Shown here: positions 3,452-63,914 of the stretch, in pieces | Layout: the number at the start of each line of letters is the position of its first letter | Numbering within the stretch: position 1 is the first letter of the stretch | Origin: an uncultured Verrucomicrobiota bacterium | GTDB taxonomy: Bacteria > Verrucomicrobiota > Kiritimatiellia > JAAZAB01 | NCBI GenBank assembly: GCA_964486075.1 | Contig: CAZALU010000002.1 | Location: 1,013 to 65,012 of the forward strand | Length of the DNA stretch: 64,000 nt | Reading direction: 5' to 3' | The notes under the pieces: model-generated | Database searches by the model: none | What the model saw: the letters and a program-made list of their open reading frames with translations, nothing else | Told to the model about the DNA's origin: nothing | Made by a program: the position numbers and the translations under genes

Positions 3452-5569
3452 CTACTGCTGCTGGTCGCTCAATCCCTTCTCCTGCATCGCCGCCTTGCGG
3501 CTGAGCTTGACGCGGCCGCGATCGTCGATGCCGATGCATTTGACCCACATCTGGTCGCCGATCTTACAAACATCCTCCACGCTTCGCACACGAAAATCGG
3601 CCAGTTCGCTGATATGCACCAAGCCGTCTTTGCCGGGGATGATTTCCACGAAAGCGCCGAATTCCTTTATGCCGGTGACGGTGCCGTTGTAGATGACGCC
3701 TTCTTCTGCCTCGGCCGTGATCAGGCTGACTTCGCGCACCGCCATTTCCATGGACGCCGCGTCGGCGCTGAAAATATTAACCGTGCCGTCGTCGTCGATG
3801 TCAATCTGGGCGTTGGTCAGATCGGTAATGCGGCGGATGTTCTTGCCGCCCGGCCCGATCAGCTCGCCGATTTTTTCCGGATGGATTTTAACCACCGTTA
3901 TCCGTGGGGCATAGGGTGACATCTTCTCCCGCGGCGCGGCGATGAGTGTGGCCATGAAGTCCAGGATTCGCAGGCGCGCCTGACGAGCCGCTTCGAAAGC
4001 CAATGCTGCCACGTCCCAAGACAGTCCATGAATTTTAAGGTCAACCTGGAAGCCGGTGATTCCGTCGCGTGTCCCGGCCACTTTGAAGTCCATATCGCCG
4101 CAGTGGTCCTCCTCGCCGTTGATGTCGGTGACCAGCACGGCCTGGCGGTCGTCGCTGAACAGTCCGATAGAAATACCGGCGACCGGCTTGGTGATCGGCA
4201 CTCCGGCATCCATCAGGGCCAGGCTTCCGACGCAAACGCTGGCCATGGATGAAGATCCGTTGGAGCCCATGATATCCGAAACCATGCGCACGGTGTAGGG
4301 ATAATCCGGTGGCATGACTTGTTCCAGAGACCGTTCGGCCAGGGCACCGTGCCCCTGTTCCCGGCGATTAGTCGATCCGAGTCGGCCGACTTCGCCTACG
4401 CTGTAGGGCGGGAAATTGTAATGCACCATGAATTTTTTTTCGGTCTTGCTGTCCGGTCCGCCGGTGATGACGTCAATTGTCTGGGAATCGGATTGGCTAC
4501 CCAAGGTGACTGTGCCCAGGGACTGGGTTTCGCCCCGGCTGAACAGTGCGGATCCGTGTACCCGTGGCAGTAAGGCGACGCTGCCGGTCAAGGGCCGGAT
4601 TTCATCGAAAACGCGTCCGCCGATCCGCCGCTGATGCTTCAATATGTTTTGCCTCACCAAGCGGATTTCGAGCTCGTCGAACATGGCCCGGAATTGTTCC
4701 TCCGTTGTATCCGGTTTGGATTCGAGGAGTTTACTCTTAAGGGTTTCCTTGCTTTTCTTGATTTGCGAACGACGCGCAGTTTTTTCCGGGATGATTAGCG
4801 CTGCCAACAGGTCCTGTTCAGCGATGTCCAAGGCCATTTGCAGGAGCGTCTGATCCGGCTGGGCATCCGTGACCGTTTTATCGGGCTTGCCCAGCTTGCG
4901 TCGTAGCTCGAGTTGGGCGTCGATCAATTTGCGGCAGAACTCGTGGGCAAACTTCATGGCCGTCAATAGGTCTGCTTCCTTGATTTCCTTGGCGCAACCT
5001 TCGATCATTACCGGAATGTCGCGGTTGGCTGCGTATATCAGATCCAAGTCGCTGCGCTGGCGCTCGGCGTTGGTGGGATTGACGATCAGCTCGCCGTCAA
5101 TTCTCCCGATCCGGACGGCGCCGATGGGGCCATGGAAAGGCAACTCGGAGAGGGTCAGCGATGCGCTGGCGGCGACGATGCTCAGAATATCCGCGTCGTT
5201 CTCGCCGTCTGCCGACAGCAGCATATTGTTAATCTGCACTTCGTTGATGAAGCCTTTTTGGAAAAGAGGGCGGATGGGGCGGTCTGTAAACCGAGCTGTC
5301 AGGACCTCTTTTTCCGAGGGCCGGGCTTCGCGTTTGAAAAATCCGCCGGGAAATTTTCCGGCGGCATAGTATTTTTCGCGGTATTCCACCTGCAGCGGAA
5401 AATAATCGATGCCCTCGCGAGGTTTTTCGGCGGCGGTGACGGCGGAAAACAGGATGGTATCGCCGAGGCGCACGGTAACGGCGCCCGCTGCCTGCTGGGC
5501 CAGGGTGCCGGTTTCGATGCGCAATGTCTTGGAGCCGAGGGGCGTTTCAACGAAGGATGCTGTATTCAT
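3452..5569 (-). CDS. pnp: polyribonucleotide nucleotidyltransferase (PNPase)
   Basis: 705 aa. Two RNase PH-like domains followed by KH and S1 domains (C-terminal ...[28 protein letters not shown]...). Located downstream of rpsO, as in the canonical operon. Confidence 0.95.
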
Positions 5570-5942: not shown

Positions 5943-6038
5943 GGCATCTTCCGCGTCGGTTGTCTTTTCCTTTTCTTATTCAGGGCGCGATTATAGGAAA
6001 TCGTTGTGAATTTGTAAAGGGGTATAGTTGATTTATTT

Positions 6039-14243: not shown

Positions 14244-14254
14244 TCTTAAAAGGT

Positions 14255-14275
14255 GTTCAGGGTTCGGGGTTCAGG
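14255..14275. repeat. heptamer tandem repeat GTTCAGG-GTTCGGG-GTTCAGG (= CCTGAAC-CCCGAAC-CCTGAAC on the opposite strand)
   Basis: Three tandem 7-mers sit 12 nt upstream of the permease start codon. A 19-mer (ctgaaccccgaaccctgaa) matches 41304-41322 exactly. Confidence 0.6.
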
Positions 14276-14283
14276 TGATGTAA

Positions 14284-14637
14284 TTATTCAGGTTTGTTTA
14301 CCGGTGCCATTGAGACGCGAGCTTTAACGACTTCTTCCTGATAACATCGCTCCTCACTTTTTCGTCTATTTGGATGCAAATTAAGAACTTTACCGGTGAA
14401 TGGTTGGGAATCTCCCTTCCGATACACCACAGAATCTCCGCTTGGCCCAAGGCCTTCTTCGATATCGTCAGGACGAACAACAACTGATGTGCAACCAGCC
14501 AGAATCAAGCCCCCAATAAAGTATGTGATTACGAATCGGAAGCGAAGCGTTCTATAGGCAAAGACGTGCAGCATTGCCGCTGTCGCCGCTATGGCGATCC
14601 AATGTGATCTTTTGATTGTCATCACCAAGTGCCGCAA
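14284..14637 (-). CDS. small putative lipoprotein / membrane protein
   Basis: 117-aa ORF. A hydrophobic segment is followed by a lipobox-like LILAGC, and the C-terminal part is hydrophilic. It sits between the SBP and permease genes. The start codon is uncertain. Confidence 0.45.
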   Translation of the reverse strand: MRHLVMTIKRSHWIAIAATAAMLHVFAYRTLRFRFVITYFIGGLILAGCTSVVVRPDDIEEGLGPSGDSVVYRKGDSQPFTGKVLNLHPNRRKSEERCYQEEVVKARVSMAPVNKPE

Positions 14638-14677
14638 AGCATGTGCGGCCTCTTTGCATGAATTTCCTGGCTGAACC

Positions 14678-37661: not shown

Positions 37662-39380
37662 ATGATGTTTATAACGCATTTTAATAAACTGATCCGAAAT
37701 AAGATCCTGTGGACTATTTTTGCGGCCATCATCATATGTTCCTTTGTGCTGTGGACAACCCAGACCGGCGGGTCCCAATCGGAGGCGTCGCTCAATCGCA
37801 CCGGCAAACTCGATGGAAAAATTGTGCCGGAACAGGAATTTCAATCCGCTTACTTCAATTCTATGCTCTCCATTTCGCTCATGTTCGGGAGGCCGATAAA
37901 GATCACTGCGCGGGTCAACGAGGAGTTGCGTGGCATGGCTTGGCGGCGGCTGGTGTCGTTGCGGGCGGCCCAGTCCATGGCTATATCCGTTACCCCTGAT
38001 GAAGTGGTCGCTGCGATCCAGCAACAGCCTTATTTTTTGGATAAGGGTCAATTCCAGCAGGACCGTTACAACATGTTCGTGGGCCGGTTTCTCGCCAGCC
38101 TCCAGACGAGCGAGGCGCAGTTTGAGGAATATATACGCCAGGAATTGATTTTGAATAAAACCAAGCATCTCCTGGCCCAGGGCGCCTGGGTGGCGCCGTT
38201 GGAGGTGGAGCAGGTGTTCGACCAGTTGTACGACGCTTTTGTCGTCAGCTATGTCTTCCTGGCGCAGGACGATGTCGCGCCCTTGGTCAAAGTCAGCGAG
38301 GATCAGGCCCAGGCCTACTTCGAAGGCCACCGGGAATCCTTTAAGATTCCGGAAAAAATGCGCGTAAAATGGGTCGCCTTTCCCATCGAGCTTTTTCTTG
38401 ATGAAGGCAATTTGGATGAGCAAACCCTGCGTTTTTATTATGACGAATACATTGAGGATTTCACCGTGCGTGACTCCAACGACCAGTTGCTCGCCAAACC
38501 TTTCGAGGTTGTGGAGGATGATCTGCGGTCAAAGATGGCTTGGGAGGCCGCGCTGGCCCAGGCGGGGGACCGGGCCTCGGATTTTGAGGTGGCACTCGCC
38601 CCGGACCGGCAGGGCAAGGCTCCGAGTTTCGAGGATGCAGCCCGAGCCGGCGGTTTATGCGTGGCGACATCGTCCTATTTTGCCGTCTCTCAGACGATTC
38701 CCGGGCTGGAGGACAACTTGGAATTCAGCAAGGCGGCTTTCGAACTGCGCCAAACTCCGGACGATTATTTCAGCCGCGTGCTTACGGGATCAAACGCTTA
38801 TTATCTCCTGGCGCTCGACAACCGGGTCGATGCCCGCATACCAGAATATGCAGAAGTTCGCAGCGCTGTTATCGAGGCGGCACAAGCGCAAGCCATAACT
38901 GAAAAATTGGAGCAGTTGGCCCGACTCTATTACGAGCTGGCGCTTGACGGCGTGGAGCAAGGTCTGTCTTTTACGCAAAGTTTGCAAGGAACCGGGTTGG
39001 AAGTAGAAACCACGGAACCGTTCTCGGTCAAGGAAGGATTCGAAAATACAGAGCTGGAATATTTCAATGCGCTGGTCAAGGAGGTGTTGACGCATAACAG
39101 CGGAGAGATGACCAAGCTTATTCCGGTCAAGAACGGCTATGTTTTTGGCCGCGTAGATTCGCGCCAGCCTGCCAGCCGCACCCTGTTGGAGTCGGCCCGC
39201 GCCGACCTGGTCCGCTATATCCGGCGCAGTCGGGAAGGCCTGGTTTTCAACGAATGGGAGGGATACCTGCTTGCTTCCGCCAAGTTTGAGGATCTTTTGC
39301 CCAAGCAGAGCGCTGCGTCGGAATTTGCGGACGATGATGCATTCCCCGAAGATGAGTTCCCGGACGGGGAAGATGAATAA
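37662..39380 (+). CDS. periplasmic chaperone of the SurA/PpiD family (N-terminal membrane anchor plus SurA-N-like domain)
   Basis: N-terminal TM helix ILWTIFAAIIICSFVLW followed by a long helical SurA-N-like region. No clear parvulin PPIase motif was recognised. The start was moved to MMFITHF (37662). Confidence 0.6.
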   Translation: MMFITHFNKLIRNKILWTIFAAIIICSFVLWTTQTGGSQSEASLNRTGKLDGKIVPEQEFQSAYFNSMLSISLMFGRPIKITARVNEELRGMAWRRLVSLRAAQSMAISVTPDEVVAAIQQQPYFLDKGQFQQDRYNMFVGRFLASLQTSEAQFEEYIRQELILNKTKHLLAQGAWVAPLEVEQVFDQLYDAFVVSYVFLAQDDVAPLVKVSEDQAQAYFEGHRESFKIPEKMRVKWVAFPIELFLDEGNLDEQTLRFYYDEYIEDFTVRDSNDQLLAKPFEVVEDDLRSKMAWEAALAQAGDRASDFEVALAPDRQGKAPSFEDAARAGGLCVATSSYFAVSQTIPGLEDNLEFSKAAFELRQTPDDYFSRVLTGSNAYYLLALDNRVDARIPEYAEVRSAVIEAAQAQAITEKLEQLARLYYELALDGVEQGLSFTQSLQGTGLEVETTEPFSVKEGFENTELEYFNALVKEVLTHNSGEMTKLIPVKNGYVFGRVDSRQPASRTLLESARADLVRYIRRSREGLVFNEWEGYLLASAKFEDLLPKQSAASEFADDDAFPEDEFPDGEDE

Positions 39381-39382
39381 TG

Positions 39383-40108
39383 CTAGCCGCTAGAAGCGGC
39401 GCCCCCGCCGCTTTCTTCTCTTGGCAAGTTCCTGAACTTCCTGATCATCCTGAAAAAACGGATTGTGTCGCGCAGCGGGCGGATCTTACTGATTTCATCC
39501 CGGTAAATGACTGTGATGGGCACTGAGCCCATGCGGACCCCGCGTGCCGCCAGGTGCAGGAGAATTTCCGACTCGGCCGCATATCCCGAGGATACCGGTG
39601 CTTCCGATGGGAGCACAGCGCAGCGATATAGACGGAACCCGCATTGTGTGTCGGGGACAGATTGCTTCATTTCCCGGCTGAGGTATCCGCTCATGAAACG
39701 GTTAGTCCAGCGCCGGATGAGTGGCATACTTCGCGGATTGCCCATGCGATTACCAACGAGGACCGGGAGCCCACTGCCGGCATAAATATCCAGAAAACGT
39801 GGAATATCAGAAGGCGCGTGCTGGCCATCGGCGTCCATGGTTAAGAGATGATCGAAACCATGTTCCCTGGCGTATTTAAAGCCTGTGAACAGGGCCACCC
39901 CTTTGCCGAGGTTGTGAGCGTGGCGCAGGACAATGGCGCCCGCCGCCGCCGCTTCCTGCGCCGTTTGATCCGGCGAGCCGTCGTCGATGACGATCACCGG
40001 ACGGATTATGCTGAGCACACTGCGGATCACTTCCCCGATCCGGCCCTGCTCCAGGTAGGCCGGCATGATCACGCAACCGCTTGTTGTTGATGTGTCAGAT
40101 CGATTCAT
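39383..40108 (-). CDS. family 2 glycosyltransferase (Dpm1/polyprenyl-phosphate sugar synthase-like)
   Basis: VIMPAYLEQGRIGEV...VIDDGSPDQT...TMDADGQH are GT2 DxD and associated motifs. The start was placed at MNRSDTS (40108); the long ORF-track N-terminal extension is Cys/Arg-rich junk that overlaps the next gene. Confidence 0.75.
   Translation of the reverse strand: MNRSDTSTTSGCVIMPAYLEQGRIGEVIRSVLSIIRPVIVIDDGSPDQTAQEAAAAGAIVLRHAHNLGKGVALFTGFKYAREHGFDHLLTMDADGQHAPSDIPRFLDIYAGSGLPVLVGNRMGNPRSMPLIRRWTNRFMSGYLSREMKQSVPDTQCGFRLYRCAVLPSEAPVSSGYAAESEILLHLAARGVRMGSVPITVIYRDEISKIRPLRDTIRFFRMIRKFRNLPREESGGGAASSG
39393..39422 (+). terminator. Rho-independent terminator (GAAGCGGCG-CCCC-CGCCGCTT + TCTTCTCTT)
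   Basis: A 9-10-bp GC-rich stem and a U-rich tail begin 13 nt after the stop of the PpiD-like gene. It shares an 18-mer (gctagaagcggcgccccc) with a degenerate copy at 63832. Confidence 0.55.
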
Positions 40109-40976
40109 GGTTCCTGTTGGGTTGCCAGAATTCGTCGAACATAAACCATTGCAGCGGGTGACGGGCGATTTCCATTTCCATTGCATCCCGAATCTGACGG
40201 CGAAGGTCAAGCACCGAGGTTTTGCCTGAGGGCACGATCGGCCGGTGCATACGGAGCAGGAAGGTGTCATCCGGCTGGCGCACCAGGAATGTCGGGACAA
40301 TTGGCGCACCGGTCTTGGCCGCGATGCGCGCGGGCCCGCTGGGCAAGCGCGCCGGAAGTCCGAAAAAAAGGAGCGGTTCATCCTGGTGAGTCGTGTAATC
40401 GCGGTCGGCCAGCATGGCTACGTATTCCCGATTCTTCAAGGCCTTGAGCACTCCGCGGGCGGCCTGGCCGAAGGGGATCAGGCGCAGGCCGCGCCTGGTG
40501 CGGTGCTTCTCGAACAGGTCGTTGACCTTGCCCGCGCGCTGGGGATAGAAAACAGCGCACAGGCGGCGGCCCAGCGCGCTGAGCACAGCCCCGCCCAGTT
40601 CCCAGTTGCCGAGGTGGGCTGTAACCAGGATTACGCCCCGTTCCAGGTGTTCGGCTTCCTCCAGGTAATCCAAGTGTTCCAGGCTCACCAGCCGGTTCAC
40701 TGCCTTGAGGTCGAAGCGCGAGAATTTAAAAAAGTCCACCAGGTATTTGCCGAAGTTCTGGAAGTTCTTGCGGGCCATCTGGCGCAGAGTGTCTTCCGAT
40801 GCCTGGACGCCTTGTGCTGCCAGGATCTGGCGGAAGTTTGACATCACTGCCTGCCGGCCCCTTTGATCCGTTGCGAAAAAACGGTCGGCTATGCGCAGTC
40901 CAACCCAGTAGGCGAAACGACGCGGCAGACCACGGCTAATGAGTTGCGCCAGCTGGTATGATATGTAGGGGGTCAT
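40095..40976 (-). CDS. lipid A biosynthesis late (Kdo-lipid IVA) acyltransferase family protein (LpxL/HtrB-like)
   Basis: 293 aa; an N-terminal hydrophobic anchor and the catalytic HLGNWE (HX4E) motif of the LpxL/LABLAT family. Confidence 0.75.
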   Translation of the reverse strand: MTPYISYQLAQLISRGLPRRFAYWVGLRIADRFFATDQRGRQAVMSNFRQILAAQGVQASEDTLRQMARKNFQNFGKYLVDFFKFSRFDLKAVNRLVSLEHLDYLEEAEHLERGVILVTAHLGNWELGGAVLSALGRRLCAVFYPQRAGKVNDLFEKHRTRRGLRLIPFGQAARGVLKALKNREYVAMLADRDYTTHQDEPLLFFGLPARLPSGPARIAAKTGAPIVPTFLVRQPDDTFLLRMHRPIVPSGKTSVLDLRRQIRDAMEMEIARHPLQWFMFDEFWQPNRNHESI

Positions 40977-40982
40977 GGGAGA

Positions 40983-41037
40983 ATGGTTAATGGTTGATGG
41001 TTAATGGTTGATGGCTGATGGTTAATGGTTGATGATG
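40983..41037. repeat. heptamer tandem repeat ATGGTTR x ~7.5 (ATGGTTA ATGGTTG ATGGTTA ATGGTTG ATGGCTG ATGGTTA ATGGTTG ATGATG)
   Basis: Read directly. It lies immediately upstream of the LpxL-like start codon and covers the stop codon of the small secreted-protein ORF. Confidence 0.8.
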
Positions 41038-41273
41038 TCCCGGAATGGTTCAGCTTTGTGCCGTCGAAAAGGCGTGAGCAGTTCGGTGTTGGCAATCCAG
41101 AGGGCAGGGTAGGGGGTCTGGGCAGGGATTTGGTTTGGGTTCGCGTTGGAAAGTTGATCGAGCGCCGCCTTGTCAAAGGCGACGAATCCCGCCTGGATCT
41201 CAACATTATAGCTTGCTTGCGCATGAATTGACGAAGTCATCAGGGCCAAAAGGCCAATAAGCCACTTGTTCAT
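41022..41273 (-). CDS. small secreted hypothetical protein (83 aa)
   Basis: Signal peptide MNKWLIGLLALMTSSIHAQA. A GGAGAAG ribosome-binding site lies upstream. The C-terminus runs into the heptamer repeat. Confidence 0.4.
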   Translation of the reverse strand: MNKWLIGLLALMTSSIHAQASYNVEIQAGFVAFDKAALDQLSNANPNQIPAQTPYPALWIANTELLTPFRRHKAEPFRDIINH

Positions 41274-41295
41274 ATTCTTCTCCTCGACAAATACT

Positions 41296-41326
41296 CCTGA
41301 ACCCTGAACCCCGAACCCTGAAAACC
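41296..41326. repeat. heptamer tandem repeat CCTGAAC CCTGAAC CCCGAAC CCTGAAA
   Basis: Read directly. It lies between the lipA stop and the start of the small secreted-protein gene. It shares a 19-mer with 14256-14274 in the opposite orientation. Confidence 0.8.
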
Positions 41327-41333
41327 AGCGTTG

Positions 41334-42218
41334 TTACGCTTGCCGGAACAACTCCTCCGCCTTGTAGGACGAACGTACCAGCGGACCGGCGGCCACGGCC
41401 GTAAAGCCCATGGATAGTGCCCTTTCCTTGTACTCGGCAAATCGCTCCGGCGCAACGAACCGGTCAACGGGGAGGTGGCGTCGCGACGGTGCCAGGTATT
41501 GACCGAGCGTCAGGATCTCGCACCCTGCCGCTCGTAAATCCTCCAGGGCTTGGAACAATTCGGCGTCGGTTTCGCCCAGGCCGACCATCAGGCCGGATTT
41601 AATTGCGGGATGCGAGTGGTTCCGCGAGGCTTCCTGGAGCACGCAGAGCGAGCGCTGGTAATCGGCCTGGGGCCGGGCGTTCGGCTGGAGCCGTTCGACG
41701 GTTTCCAGGTTATGGTTGAACACGTCTGGCCTGGCCTCAAGCACGGTGGTAACGGATTGCGCATTCCCTTGAAAATCGGGAGTCAACACTTCTACGGTGA
41801 TACCGGTTCCGTGCGAAGCTCCGATGCGAGGCTGGGTTTTGATCCGGTTGATGGTGGCGGCGAATGCGCCGGCGCCGCCGTCCGGCAGATCGTCCCGGGT
41901 GACGCTGGTGACGACGACATGCCGCATGTCCAAGTGAGCCGCCAGTTCAGCCACCCGGCGCGGCTCGGCGGGGTCGGGAGGCGATGGAATGCCTGTCTCA
42001 ACCGCGCAGAATCGGCATTGGCGCGTGCAGAGGTTGCCAAGAATCATAAACGTGACCGTGCCGTGCTGAAAACATTCCTGGCGGTTGGGGCAGCGCGCAC
42101 TTTGGCAGACCGTGTTTAGACCGGCGCTCTCGATCACGTCATTAATTTCGGCCAGGCGTCCGTCGCTTTGCAGCCGGATTCGAATCCATGGAGGTAGTCG
42201 CTTCATGATTGCATGCAT
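41334..42218 (-). CDS. lipA: lipoyl synthase
   Basis: CPNRQECF... and CTRQCRFC radical-SAM and auxiliary cluster motifs; 294 aa. Confidence 0.9.
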   Translation of the reverse strand: MHAIMKRLPPWIRIRLQSDGRLAEINDVIESAGLNTVCQSARCPNRQECFQHGTVTFMILGNLCTRQCRFCAVETGIPSPPDPAEPRRVAELAAHLDMRHVVVTSVTRDDLPDGGAGAFAATINRIKTQPRIGASHGTGITVEVLTPDFQGNAQSVTTVLEARPDVFNHNLETVERLQPNARPQADYQRSLCVLQEASRNHSHPAIKSGLMVGLGETDAELFQALEDLRAAGCEILTLGQYLAPSRRHLPVDRFVAPERFAEYKERALSMGFTAVAAGPLVRSSYKAEELFRQA

Positions 42219-42254
42219 AGGATTTCAAGATCGTAGAAGCGACGCCGTTTCACT

Positions 42255-42668
42255 TCAGCTTGGCCCTAACAGCGGCGGGACCGTTGCTTCCACCTTATCA
42301 GCCATGGCAAAATTAATGCTTTGTTCAGCTGCTGGGTCCAGTTTGAATTGGGCCTGGCAGGGGGATGTTAATTCTTCACGTCTCCAAACAGTTGGAAAAT
42401 CGCGGCACTGCCGGGGCTTGACGGGCTGAATCCGGCACGTATTCCCTTCCAGAAACACACAGGCGCCGTCCCCGGCCTCGGTGAGGATGAGGCCGGTACG
42501 GGAAGGATGCAGACGCGTGAAGCGATCCACGAACGAAACCGGTGTAAGATCCAGGAAACGAGCGATGGTTTCCAGTTCTTCCGGCAGAATCCGGACGAAG
42601 CCTGGCCAGCGGCAACAATTTCCACAGCGTGTGCATAGAGGTTGGGATGTTGCAGAATTGTTGATCAT
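42255..42668 (-). CDS. YkgJ family Cys-cluster protein (UPF0153, putative Fe-S/zinc-binding)
   Basis: CTRCGNCCRW...CVFLEGNTCRIQPVKPRQCRDFP matches the CxxCxxCC...C...C pattern of the YkgJ/flagellin N-methylase-like family. Confidence 0.7.
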   Translation of the reverse strand: MINNSATSQPLCTRCGNCCRWPGFVRILPEELETIARFLDLTPVSFVDRFTRLHPSRTGLILTEAGDGACVFLEGNTCRIQPVKPRQCRDFPTVWRREELTSPCQAQFKLDPAAEQSINFAMADKVEATVPPLLGPS

Positions 42669-42742
42669 GGTTGATTCTTCAAAATATTTGCCATACAGTA
42701 TGTCAGGTTAGTGACGTTTATTCAATCTGAACTTAGGAGGTC

Positions 42743-44034
42743 ATGTTGAAAACAAAAACGACGCCAGGCGATACGCGCTGGTTTGTGAGGGACCGGTTCG
42801 GCATGTTTATTCACTGGGGTCTTTATGCCCTGCCGGCGCGGCACGAGTGGATCAAGCAGGTGGAACAGATTCCGGACGAGAAGTATGCGACCTATTTTCG
42901 GCATTTCGATCCGGATCTGTATGATCCCGAGCTCTGGGCCCGGGCGGCCGCCGGGGCCGGCATGAATATTTCGTGGTCACCACCAAGCACCACGAGGGCT
43001 TCTGCCTGTGGGATTCGAAGCTGACCGATTACAAGGCGCCCAACACCCCGGCCGGGCGCGATCTGCTGCGCCCCATGGTCAATGCGTTCCGAAAACAGGA
43101 TATGCGTGTGGGCTTCTATCACTCCCTGATCGACTGGCATCACCCCGAGTTCACGATCGACGATATGCATGCTCTGCGGAATCACCCGGACCGCGCCAAG
43201 CTGAACCGCAGCCGGCGCCAGGAAATGTACGTGCGATACCTGCACGGGCAGGTCCGCGAGCTGTTGACCCGCTTCGGCAAGATCGACATCATGTGGTTTG
43301 ATTTCAGCTATCCGACCCGCGCCGGCCTGAAGGATTGGGTGGGCAAGGGCCGCGCCGAGTGGCAGAGCGAGAAGCTCTATAAACTGGTCCGCAAGCTGGC
43401 CCCGCACATCATTCTCGACGACCGGCTGGATCTCGATGAGGGCTGGGACATCAAAACGCCGGAACAGTATCAGCCGCGTGAATGGCCGATGGTGAATGGT
43501 CAACCCGTGGTCTGGGAGGCCTGCCAGACGTTTTCCGGCTCGTGGGGCTATCACCGGGATGAAGCCAGCTGGAAGAGCATCGATCAGCTCGTCCAGATGC
43601 TGGTCGACACGGTCAGCAAGGGCGGCAATCTGCTGCTGAATGTCGGACCCACCGGGCGTGGCGAGTTCGACCGGCGGGCGCTGGACCGGCTGGCGGGCAT
43701 GGGCGAGTGGATGAAACGCCACAGCCGCTCGATCTACGGCTGTACCCAGGCGCCAGCGGAATTCGTGACGCCGCGGGATTGCCGTTTGACGTACAATCCG
43801 GATAAGCGCCGGCTCTACGTGCATGTTTTTGCCTGGCCGTTTATGCACCTGCACCTGGACGGCTTGGCCGGCAAGGTGGCCTATGCGCAATTGTTGAACG
43901 ACGCTTCGGAAGTGCTCGCCAGCGAACCCGCCGAGCATCAGAAATCCTCGCAGGACAAGGGCACCATGGTCTTGACTCTACCGGTCCGCAAACCGGACGT
44001 AACCGTTCCCGTAATCGAGTTGTTCCTAAAATAA
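42743..44034 (+). pseudogene. alpha-L-fucosidase (GH29) interrupted by a single-base frameshift
   Basis: ORF 42743-43024 ends ...FGMFIHWGLYA...AAAGAGM, and ORF 42973-44034 begins (K)YFVVTTKHHEGFCLWDSK. Together they reconstitute the GH29 signature ...AGAKY-VVLTTKHHDGFxLWDS. The sequence catgaAtattt at ~42964-42967 lacks one A relative to the expected atgAAAtat. Confidence 0.75.
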
Positions 44035-63885: not shown

Positions 63886-63914
63886 GGGGGGGGGGGGGGG
63901 GGGGTTTTTTTTTT
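63886..63914. repeat. G19 T10 homopolymer junction
   Basis: cccgc + 19 G + 10 T + cctggc, read directly. It lies 19 nt downstream of the stop of a minus-strand gene that enters from the right window edge. Confidence 0.9.

Follow-up and report, generated by a model that had tools for sequence, protein, structure and literature searches.

The window analysed here, a 64,000-nucleotide stretch of contig CAZALU010000002.1 from an uncultured bacterium of the Kiritimatiellia (phylum Verrucomicrobiota), contains a minus-strand gene group comprising, in order of transcription, the lipoyl synthase gene lipA, a 60-nt spacer, an open reading frame (ORF) of 83 aa, a 45-nt spacer, the gene for an LpxL-like acyltransferase and the gene for a family-2 glycosyltransferase, which overlaps the acyltransferase gene. 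The 83-aa ORF is flanked by tandem arrays of two different heptamers. Both arrays had been noted in a sequence-only reading of the window, and Tandem Repeats Finder, direct reading and the excess over shuffled sequence confirm them, with the refinements that the units on the transcribed strand are GGGTTCR upstream and ATCAACC/ATTAACC downstream and that the fourth upstream unit is degenerate. The upstream array begins 7 nt past the lipA stop codon, ends 22 nt ahead of the ATG of the 83-aa ORF and reads GGTTTTCA GGGTTCG GGGTTCA GGGTTCA GG on the transcribed strand; Tandem Repeats Finder reports it with period 7 at 41296-41322, 3.9 copies and 90% matches. The downstream array consists of the units ATCAACC ATTAACC ATCAGCC ATCAACC ATTAACC ATCAACC ATTAACC ATTCTCC (period 7 at 40982-41034, 7.6 copies, 84% matches), shows in addition a higher-order period of 21 nt with 93% matches, and contains one G in 53 nt. 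It occupies the 45-nt spacer and leaves 5 nt free ahead of the acyltransferase ATG, whereas it had been supposed to run into the start codon.

Both arrays exceed what is expected by chance. Two-unit patterns of the upstream array occur five times against 0.33 expected and those of the downstream array seven times against 1.03 expected, where expectations come from 100 dinucleotide-preserving shuffles and the observed count was reached in 0/100 of them for either array. The longest perfect tract is 28 nt, equal to two copies of a 14-mer, and the 21-nt blocks of the downstream array, units 1-3 and units 4-6, differ by 1 nt, which suggests a recent duplication or slippage of a 21-nt block. This array also supplies the stop codon of the 83-aa ORF, as the earlier reading stated, in the form of a TAA in unit 2, and holds a further in-frame TAA; just the last four codons and the stop of the ORF overlap it. 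The STINHQP repeat described for the alternative frame (STINHQPSTINHQP) is likewise real, as a merely overlapping frame.

The 83-aa ORF itself had been presented as a small secreted-protein gene. The ORF exists and its N-terminus is signal-peptide-like as judged by eye (MNKWLIGLLALMTSSIHA followed by QA), but alignment with relatives identifies it as the in-frame leftover of a 576-aa gene with a secretin domain. Relatives are designated here by L-numbered loci, and the percentage given with each is the identity of its acyltransferase to that of the window. In L004 (87%), which is the nearest relative among the genomes, a 576-aa ORF with a signal peptide fills the site of the 83-aa ORF; its product matches Pfam Secretin at residues 58-206 and has domain-level matches only in NCBIfam, to type IV pilus secretins. 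BLASTP aligns the 83-aa ORF with the L004 protein at residues 1-49 (76% identity) and 547-571 (68%), and in the DNA alignment nt 150-1638 of the L004 ORF (1,488 nt, 496 codons) are exactly absent from the window ORF, which is thus a deletion remnant without the secretin domain. The value of GC content at third codon positions (GC3) is 0.64 for the 576-aa gene against 0.92 for its neighbour, which marks that gene as foreign to the operon; the remnant has a GC3 of 0.62 against 0.71-0.74 for the flanking genes. A large protein search returned no homologue of the 83-aa ORF besides the ORF itself, and its origin is explained via synteny instead. A serpin domain guessed for the C-terminal half of the 576-aa protein finds no support in Pfam or in a PDB sequence search. 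The remnant and the acyltransferase gene share a reading frame, with two TAA codons between them. At 3740-3770 of L010 the end of lipA reads ATGAATAAA..TTGGCACAGG, encoding MNKSLAQAK and a stop, and to judge by the motif MNK...LAQ this may be a still smaller remnant of the signal peptide of the secretin-domain gene.

Neither array of the window is conserved among the relatives, and seeds for both are present in them. Where the window has its four GGGTTCR units, the aligned L004 sequence contains GGATTCAGGA once, and 3′ of its 576-aa ORF L004 reads CCTGAACC GTGAACC CTGAACC GTTGAACC ATTCCCC ATCAACC, then 31 nt, then CCATCAACCATTCCCC-ATG. It carries four units of the CCTGAACC type where the window has a single CTGAACC, and its CCATCAACCATTCCCC is the seed of the downstream array. 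In L010 the sequence directly before the ATG is a degenerate CTGTAACC GTGCACC GCTGAACC GTTAAACC, so that the close relatives L004 and L010/L008 (89%) have other unit numbers and sequences at the same sites. Another seed has therefore been enlarged in each lineage; in the window one CTGAACC remains and ATYAACC has grown to eight units. The junction between lipA and the acyltransferase gene is variable in gene content as well: the acyltransferase gene directly follows lipA in L010/L008, about 97 nt apart, in L012 (86%) lipA is followed by an inserted restriction-modification pair of BglII-like type, and a short, repeat-free spacer is found in L013 (76%), L014 (74%), L005 (68%) and L006/L007 (54%), the relatives at 54-76% identity all having no array at these sites. 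The length polymorphism anticipated in the earlier reading is therefore borne out on an evolutionary scale, with relatives at 87-89% differing from the window and more distant ones lacking an array. From these alignments, the locus presents a birth-and-death pattern of the kind expected of slippage-driven microsatellites, and it offers a clean series of births, in which one relative has the seed as a single copy, another has four units and the window has eight.

The two arrays are part of a wider excess of heptamer repeats in this DNA. The survey extended to the 64 kb of the host genome and about 150 kb from relatives; a metagenome scan contributed just one extra relative, and the acyltransferase homologues found by protein search came from metagenome-assembled genomes (MAGs) labelled Verrucomicrobiota or Kiritimatiellia. 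A scan of the window by period gave three period-7 arrays at the score threshold against 0.03 expected from shuffles, and none at that threshold for periods 5, 6 and 8-12. With a looser threshold the number of period-7 arrays rises to five (Table 1), each of them between co-oriented genes and near a start or stop codon (5/5). The second CCTGAAC-type array finishes 11 nt short of the start codon (ATG) of an iron ATP-binding cassette (ABC) permease gene, and no array occurs at this site in the relatives compared. It adjoins a 117-aa ORF, without a match in Pfam or NCBIfam, that has been inserted among the iron ABC transporter genes, separating the one for the substrate-binding protein from the one for the permease. 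These two genes overlap by 4 nt in L019; the 117-aa ORF is bracketed by GGGTTCAG (14670-14677) and the array. Within the intergenic DNA of the window, GTTCRGG occurs solely in this array and the upstream array at lipA. A DNA-uptake sequence or an element of the repetitive extragenic palindromic type was considered for this heptamer and rejected, as the exact 7-mer occurs seven times against about eight expected from base composition. Among the relatives, L005 has CCAAAAT x4.7 (4945-4978), translated as the C-terminal tail of LipA (..NSKIQIPKSKK..), together with an inverted TTGGAAT x2.3 (5064-5079) in the same spacer, and L010 has a GATTTTN x4.5 array. The unit CCAAATY is common to the lipA spacer of L005 and the gatC-gatA spacer of the window. 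In L014, GTTCGGTGTTCAGG forms one arm of an inverted repeat, GGTGTTCAGG...CCTGAACACC, which lies at 2146-2210 in a divergent intergenic region and is preceded by GTTCGGT; GGTGTTCAGG is also present in the window at 14252-14261.

Table 1. Features of the lipA-acyltransferase locus and of the other heptamer arrays in the window.
Feature	Position	Strand	Basis and remarks
Array of ATGCAGA x2, then ATGAAAA ATGAA	2415..2441	-	Overlaps stop codon of 135-aa ORF; upstream of peptidase M16 gene
Second CCTGAAC-type array, CCTGAAC CCCGAAC CCTGAAC (transcribed strand)	14255..14275	-	Tandem Repeats Finder; opposite strand GTTCAGG GTTCGGG GTTCAGG
117-aa ORF, lipoprotein-like, low GC3	14284..14637	-	GC3 0.43 against 0.75-0.80 in neighbours
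LpxL-like acyltransferase gene, lysophospholipid acyltransferase (LPLAT) superfamily	40095..40976	-	Pfam Lip_A_acyltrans, E = 5e-44
Downstream heptamer array, ATCAACC/ATTAACC	40982..41037	-	Tandem Repeats Finder, shuffles, direct reading
83-aa ORF with signal peptide, in-frame deletion remnant	41022..41273	-	BLASTP and DNA alignment against L004
Single CTGAACC (transcribed strand)	41047..41053	-	Within last codons of remnant ORF; inverted relative to upstream array
Shine-Dalgarno-like GAGGAG	41280..41285	-	6 nt before ATG of 83-aa ORF; read from sequence
Upstream heptamer array, GGGTTCR x4	41296..41326	-	Tandem Repeats Finder, shuffles, direct reading
lipA (lipoyl synthase, radical SAM)	41334..42218	-	Pfam Radical_SAM; TAA stop 41336-41334; synteny with relatives
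Array of CCAAATC CCAAATT CCAA	61516..61533	-	gatC-gatA spacer, finishing 14 nt before gatA start

The arrays are tandem 7-nt units beyond chance, in DNA with an excess of period 7 over 64 kb, and they lie between co-oriented genes and vary between relatives, which are the properties of heptanucleotide simple-sequence repeats. They are probably lineage-specific intergenic repeats of this class, born by slippage in the transcribed spacers of a fast-evolving and decaying junction, and forming at most a passive or mildly tuning leader. Slippage would first have enlarged 7-nt units and later 14- and 21-nt blocks. Each array would have started from a seed that the transcribed spacers contained once, in an operon with the gene order lipA - (secretin-domain gene) - acyltransferase - glycosyltransferase. 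The same junction evolves fast in gene content, with a foreign 576-aa gene in one relative and an in-frame loss of 1,488 bp in the window that left the 83-aa ORF. The arrays would be transcribed as intercistronic RNA, and the most that the downstream one would do is to form an unstructured leader poor in G, in which translation of the remnant stops at two TAA codons and ribosomes then meet a start codon without a Shine-Dalgarno sequence; it would be a passive or mildly tuning spacer and no reversible switch. Several points weigh against this explanation. Two unlinked loci, 41296 and 14255, share 20 identical nt in opposite orientation, with one unit and one internal variant, GTTCGGG, in common, and the related GTTCGGTGTTCAGG is present in L014; independent slippage fits this uneasily, and the sharing hints at selection for the sequence or at copying between sites. 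The abundance of such arrays across the genome is, moreover, an extrapolation from 64 kb and about 150 kb of relatives.

The properties of the acyltransferase gene and its leader bear on whether the arrays could act in gene expression. The assignment of the product as LpxL-like is supported by Pfam, but all of its NCBIfam matches fall below the curated cut-offs, the best being a PIM acyltransferase model, so that the substrate is unproven. The start codon is conserved in the relatives, and no Shine-Dalgarno sequence precedes it in the window or in any relative compared. The leader containing the downstream array folds with -2.3 kcal/mol for 81 nt and is essentially unpaired, and RNA folding of the whole 396-nt spacer from lipA to the acyltransferase gene is no better than that of shuffles (z = -0.03), which rules out long-range pairing of the upstream GGUUCAGG units with the downstream CUGAACC. 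An Rfam scan of 39000-43000 at E <= 1 gave no match, and no minus-strand terminator was predicted between the genes of the locus. The best sigma-70-like promoter match of the region, TCGTCA-18-TATAAT at 41205-41234 on the minus strand (10/12, a consensus match only), sits within the remnant ORF and is directed at the acyltransferase gene. In L004, the 13-nt AACCATTCCCCAT is present twice at 5972-6038, 54 nt apart and just 5′ of the acyltransferase ATG, and from its arrangement looks like a duplicated start-codon context around a 41-nt insert.

An active role in translation would follow if the arrays formed a post-transcriptional regulon, in which C/A-rich heptamers in the mRNA bind an S1-, Csp- or CsrA-like factor or form a ribosome standby site and so control translation of downstream genes without a Shine-Dalgarno sequence, as proposed for TAACTGA repeats (PMC4679880). 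The unstructured leader is consistent with this, as are the orientation and placement of the arrays: in four of the five the sense strand is the C/A-rich one, and three of those four end 5-14 nt before a start codon without a clear Shine-Dalgarno sequence; the fourth overlaps the stop codon of the 135-aa ORF. The units, however, differ by locus (AACCATY, CCTGAAC, CCAAATY, CAGAATG), which makes a single binding specificity unlikely, one array is oppositely oriented, and the arrays are not conserved in relatives. A regulon of this kind is accordingly considered unlikely.

Heptamer slippage that reversibly alters expression of the acyltransferase and of the small protein, and with it phase-variable or graded acylation of lipid A, was the possibility raised in the sequence-only reading. 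The idea of such a contingency locus draws on the difference in array length between close lineages and on the position of the downstream array directly before an envelope-biogenesis gene. Heptamer tracts are also known to govern expression elsewhere, in the hmw promoters of Haemophilus influenzae and in neuO of Escherichia coli K1. These tracts resemble the window arrays in consisting of 7-nt tandem units beside a surface-modification gene; they are, however, long, perfect, located in a promoter or ORF, and variable between isolates, whereas the arrays of the window are imperfect, intercistronic and invariant in three assemblies. The three assemblies, namely the window, Logan SRR8925755 and JGI 3300015214, derive from at least two samples and are 100% identical through both arrays, at the level of consensus sequences, which mask minority variants; the Logan assembly also agrees with the window at the 14255 and 2415 arrays. 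Locus L016 was considered as a near-identical second strain and rejected, as 14/14 of its mismatches are gathered at one end of the contig, which identifies it as the same strain.

The construction of the arrays speaks against a switch as well. The tracts are imperfect, with 84-90% matches, and are neither long and near-perfect nor placed so as to alter a reading frame or promoter spacing: both lie outside the acyltransferase ORF and are therefore unable to frameshift it, and promoter prediction at the locus found no sigma-70-like promoter spanning either of them. A change of copy number had been expected to alter the C-terminus of the small protein, but changes downstream of unit 2 would leave the product unaltered. 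Similar arrays precede housekeeping genes (gatA, the ABC permease, the peptidase), an argument that Rehm et al. also brought against phase variation of the heptamers in Xanthomonas and Nostoc (PMC4692102), and most relatives have no array at all. Because of the identical assemblies, the imperfect tracts, their location outside the ORF, the lack of a spanning promoter and the housekeeping neighbours, phase variation of the acyltransferase is unsupported and regarded as quite improbable, which removes a tempting claim about lipid A acylation from this locus.

A different origin for the arrays would be as recombination sites or scars, if inverted GGTTCAG...CTGAACC copies mark the ends of foreign ORFs that enter intercistronic spacers. 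The 64 kb contain seven exact GGTTCAG/CTGAACC heptamers, and five of them lie beside two low-GC3 ORFs, the 83-aa remnant and the 117-aa ORF, in the same inverted arrangement; L004 has the same bracket around its intact 576-aa gene, and the lipA-acyltransferase junction holds different foreign genes in different relatives. This pattern, however, was noticed post hoc, and CTGAACC-type 3′ repeats are found ahead of the acyltransferase gene in L010 too, where no complete inserted gene is present, so that they may belong to an ancestral leader. Two other arrays have no adjoining foreign gene, and no recombinase was identified, the ORFs of the window not all having been screened. The units also misfit the integron core sites GTTRRRY/RYYYAAC, and an integron attC site was rejected on the grounds that GTTCAGG deviates by a C at position 4 and CCTGAAC by a C at position 1 and a G at position 4. 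It is thus a long shot that GGTTCAG...CTGAACC, enlarged to short arrays on one side, forms the borders of undescribed promoterless cassettes in Kiritimatiellia operons. If true, it would explain the common bracket on two unrelated low-GC3 ORFs and the 576-aa gene of L004, and as a lead it would be the more significant one if confirmed, resting at present on two loci. Least probable of all is that the GGGTTCR array folds as a DNA or RNA G-quadruplex and modulates transcription or translation in the manner of GGGNATC repeats: its unit does combine a G3 tract with a 4-nt loop in about four repeats, and the G-rich strand of the two arrays with this unit is coding <50 bp after the lipA stop in one and non-coding <50 bp upstream of the permease gene in the other, the placements of PMC4692102, but there are three tracts of G>=3 at 41296-41326 and two at 14255-14275 where four are needed, ViennaRNA with G-quadruplex terms predicts no such structure for either G-rich strand, and the AACCATY array has no G-tracts on the RNA.

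Other features of the window and of the related loci were recorded alongside the arrays. The lipA genes of the window and of L012, the latter lying 5′ of the homologous locus, share 75% identity; in L012 the insert between lipA and the acyltransferase gene (798-2046) comprises a BglII-like endonuclease and an MT-A70 methylase and is followed at 2141-2288 by a 32-nt inverted repeat (GCATGGTTCAATTTCGGGTTAC...) around 84 nt, which looks like a small element of the miniature inverted-repeat transposable type. The C-terminal coding part of the glycosyltransferase gene contains a 9-nt tandem repeat, TTCCTGAAC x2.9 at 39429-39454, that includes the CCTGAAC heptamer and encodes ...RKFRNL.... An alpha-L-fucosidase gene (42743-44034, plus strand) is broken into two frames in the window, giving ORFs of 93 and 353 aa, and at 42960-42970 the Logan sequence for this strain carries an extra T (TTT against TT), the sole difference in 5.9 kb; the split is due to an assembly error, or else the MAG has a frameshift or a pseudogene here. 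At 63886-63914, 3′ of a 402-aa membrane-protein gene, a G19 homopolymer is directly followed by T10, and the Logan contig L020 stops exactly where the G19 run ends; the tract may be genuine and hypermutable, or may have arisen as a poly-G artefact of sequencing or assembly.

A literature search on tandem repeats in Kiritimatiellia found nothing, and to our knowledge heptanucleotide repeats of this class are undescribed for the group. Among further heptanucleotide repeats, the short tandemly repeated repetitive sequences of cyanobacteria have a period of 7 and are non-coding. Among the closest published analogues are the GGGNATC and GGGGA(C/T)T heptamers of Xanthomonas and Nostoc, which prefer about four units, are concentrated between aligned ORFs, vary extensively in length and sequence between close relatives and were not found to be linked with phase variation (Rehm et al. 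2015, PMC4692102). The G-rich strand of GGGNATC repeats is coding when they lie <50 bp after a stop codon and non-coding when they lie <50 bp before a start codon (PMC4692102). The window arrays share with them the 7-nt units with a G3 tract, the number of about four units, the co-oriented neighbours and the variation at the same intergenic site, and the two GGGTTCR arrays match both placements, with the G-rich strand coding 7 nt after the lipA stop and non-coding 11 nt before the permease ATG. They differ in the unit itself, in having fewer than four G3 tracts and no predicted G-quadruplex, in the phylum, and in an abundance known from 64 kb alone.

Equally close are the intergenic TAACTGA direct repeats of marine Beggiatoaceae and some Cyanobacteria and Bacteroidetes, of which two to six copies lie a few nucleotides upstream of start codons without a Shine-Dalgarno sequence and for which a translational role was proposed (MacGregor 2015, PMC4679880). 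The likeness consists in several copies near such starts, mostly in one orientation, in stop codons within the units and in unrelated or housekeeping genes downstream, and the same geometry is seen for the AACCATY, CCTGAAC (14255) and CCAAATY arrays, at 5 nt from the acyltransferase, 11 nt from the permease and 14 nt from the gatA start codon, respectively; the array at 41296 is the exception. The units (ATYAACC, CCTGAAC, CCAAATY) are different, and several families take the place of one dominant heptamer. The broadest match is with the class described by Mrazek et al. (2007), who, as cited in PMC4679880, found heptanucleotides to be the most abundant of the 5-11-nt prokaryotic repeats and proposed slippage as their cause; as far as that citation conveys it, the favoured period of 7, the non-coding location and the proposed origin by slippage are all shared. 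For annotation, the comparison shows an apparent small secreted-protein gene to be gene debris. The arrays belong to the intergenic heptanucleotide simple-sequence repeats, outside the strict G-quadruplex and TAACTGA families, and if their probable origin as slippage-born, lineage-specific repeats is correct, an uncultured Kiritimatiellia lineage of the PVC superphylum joins the few groups that accumulate intergenic heptamer repeats.

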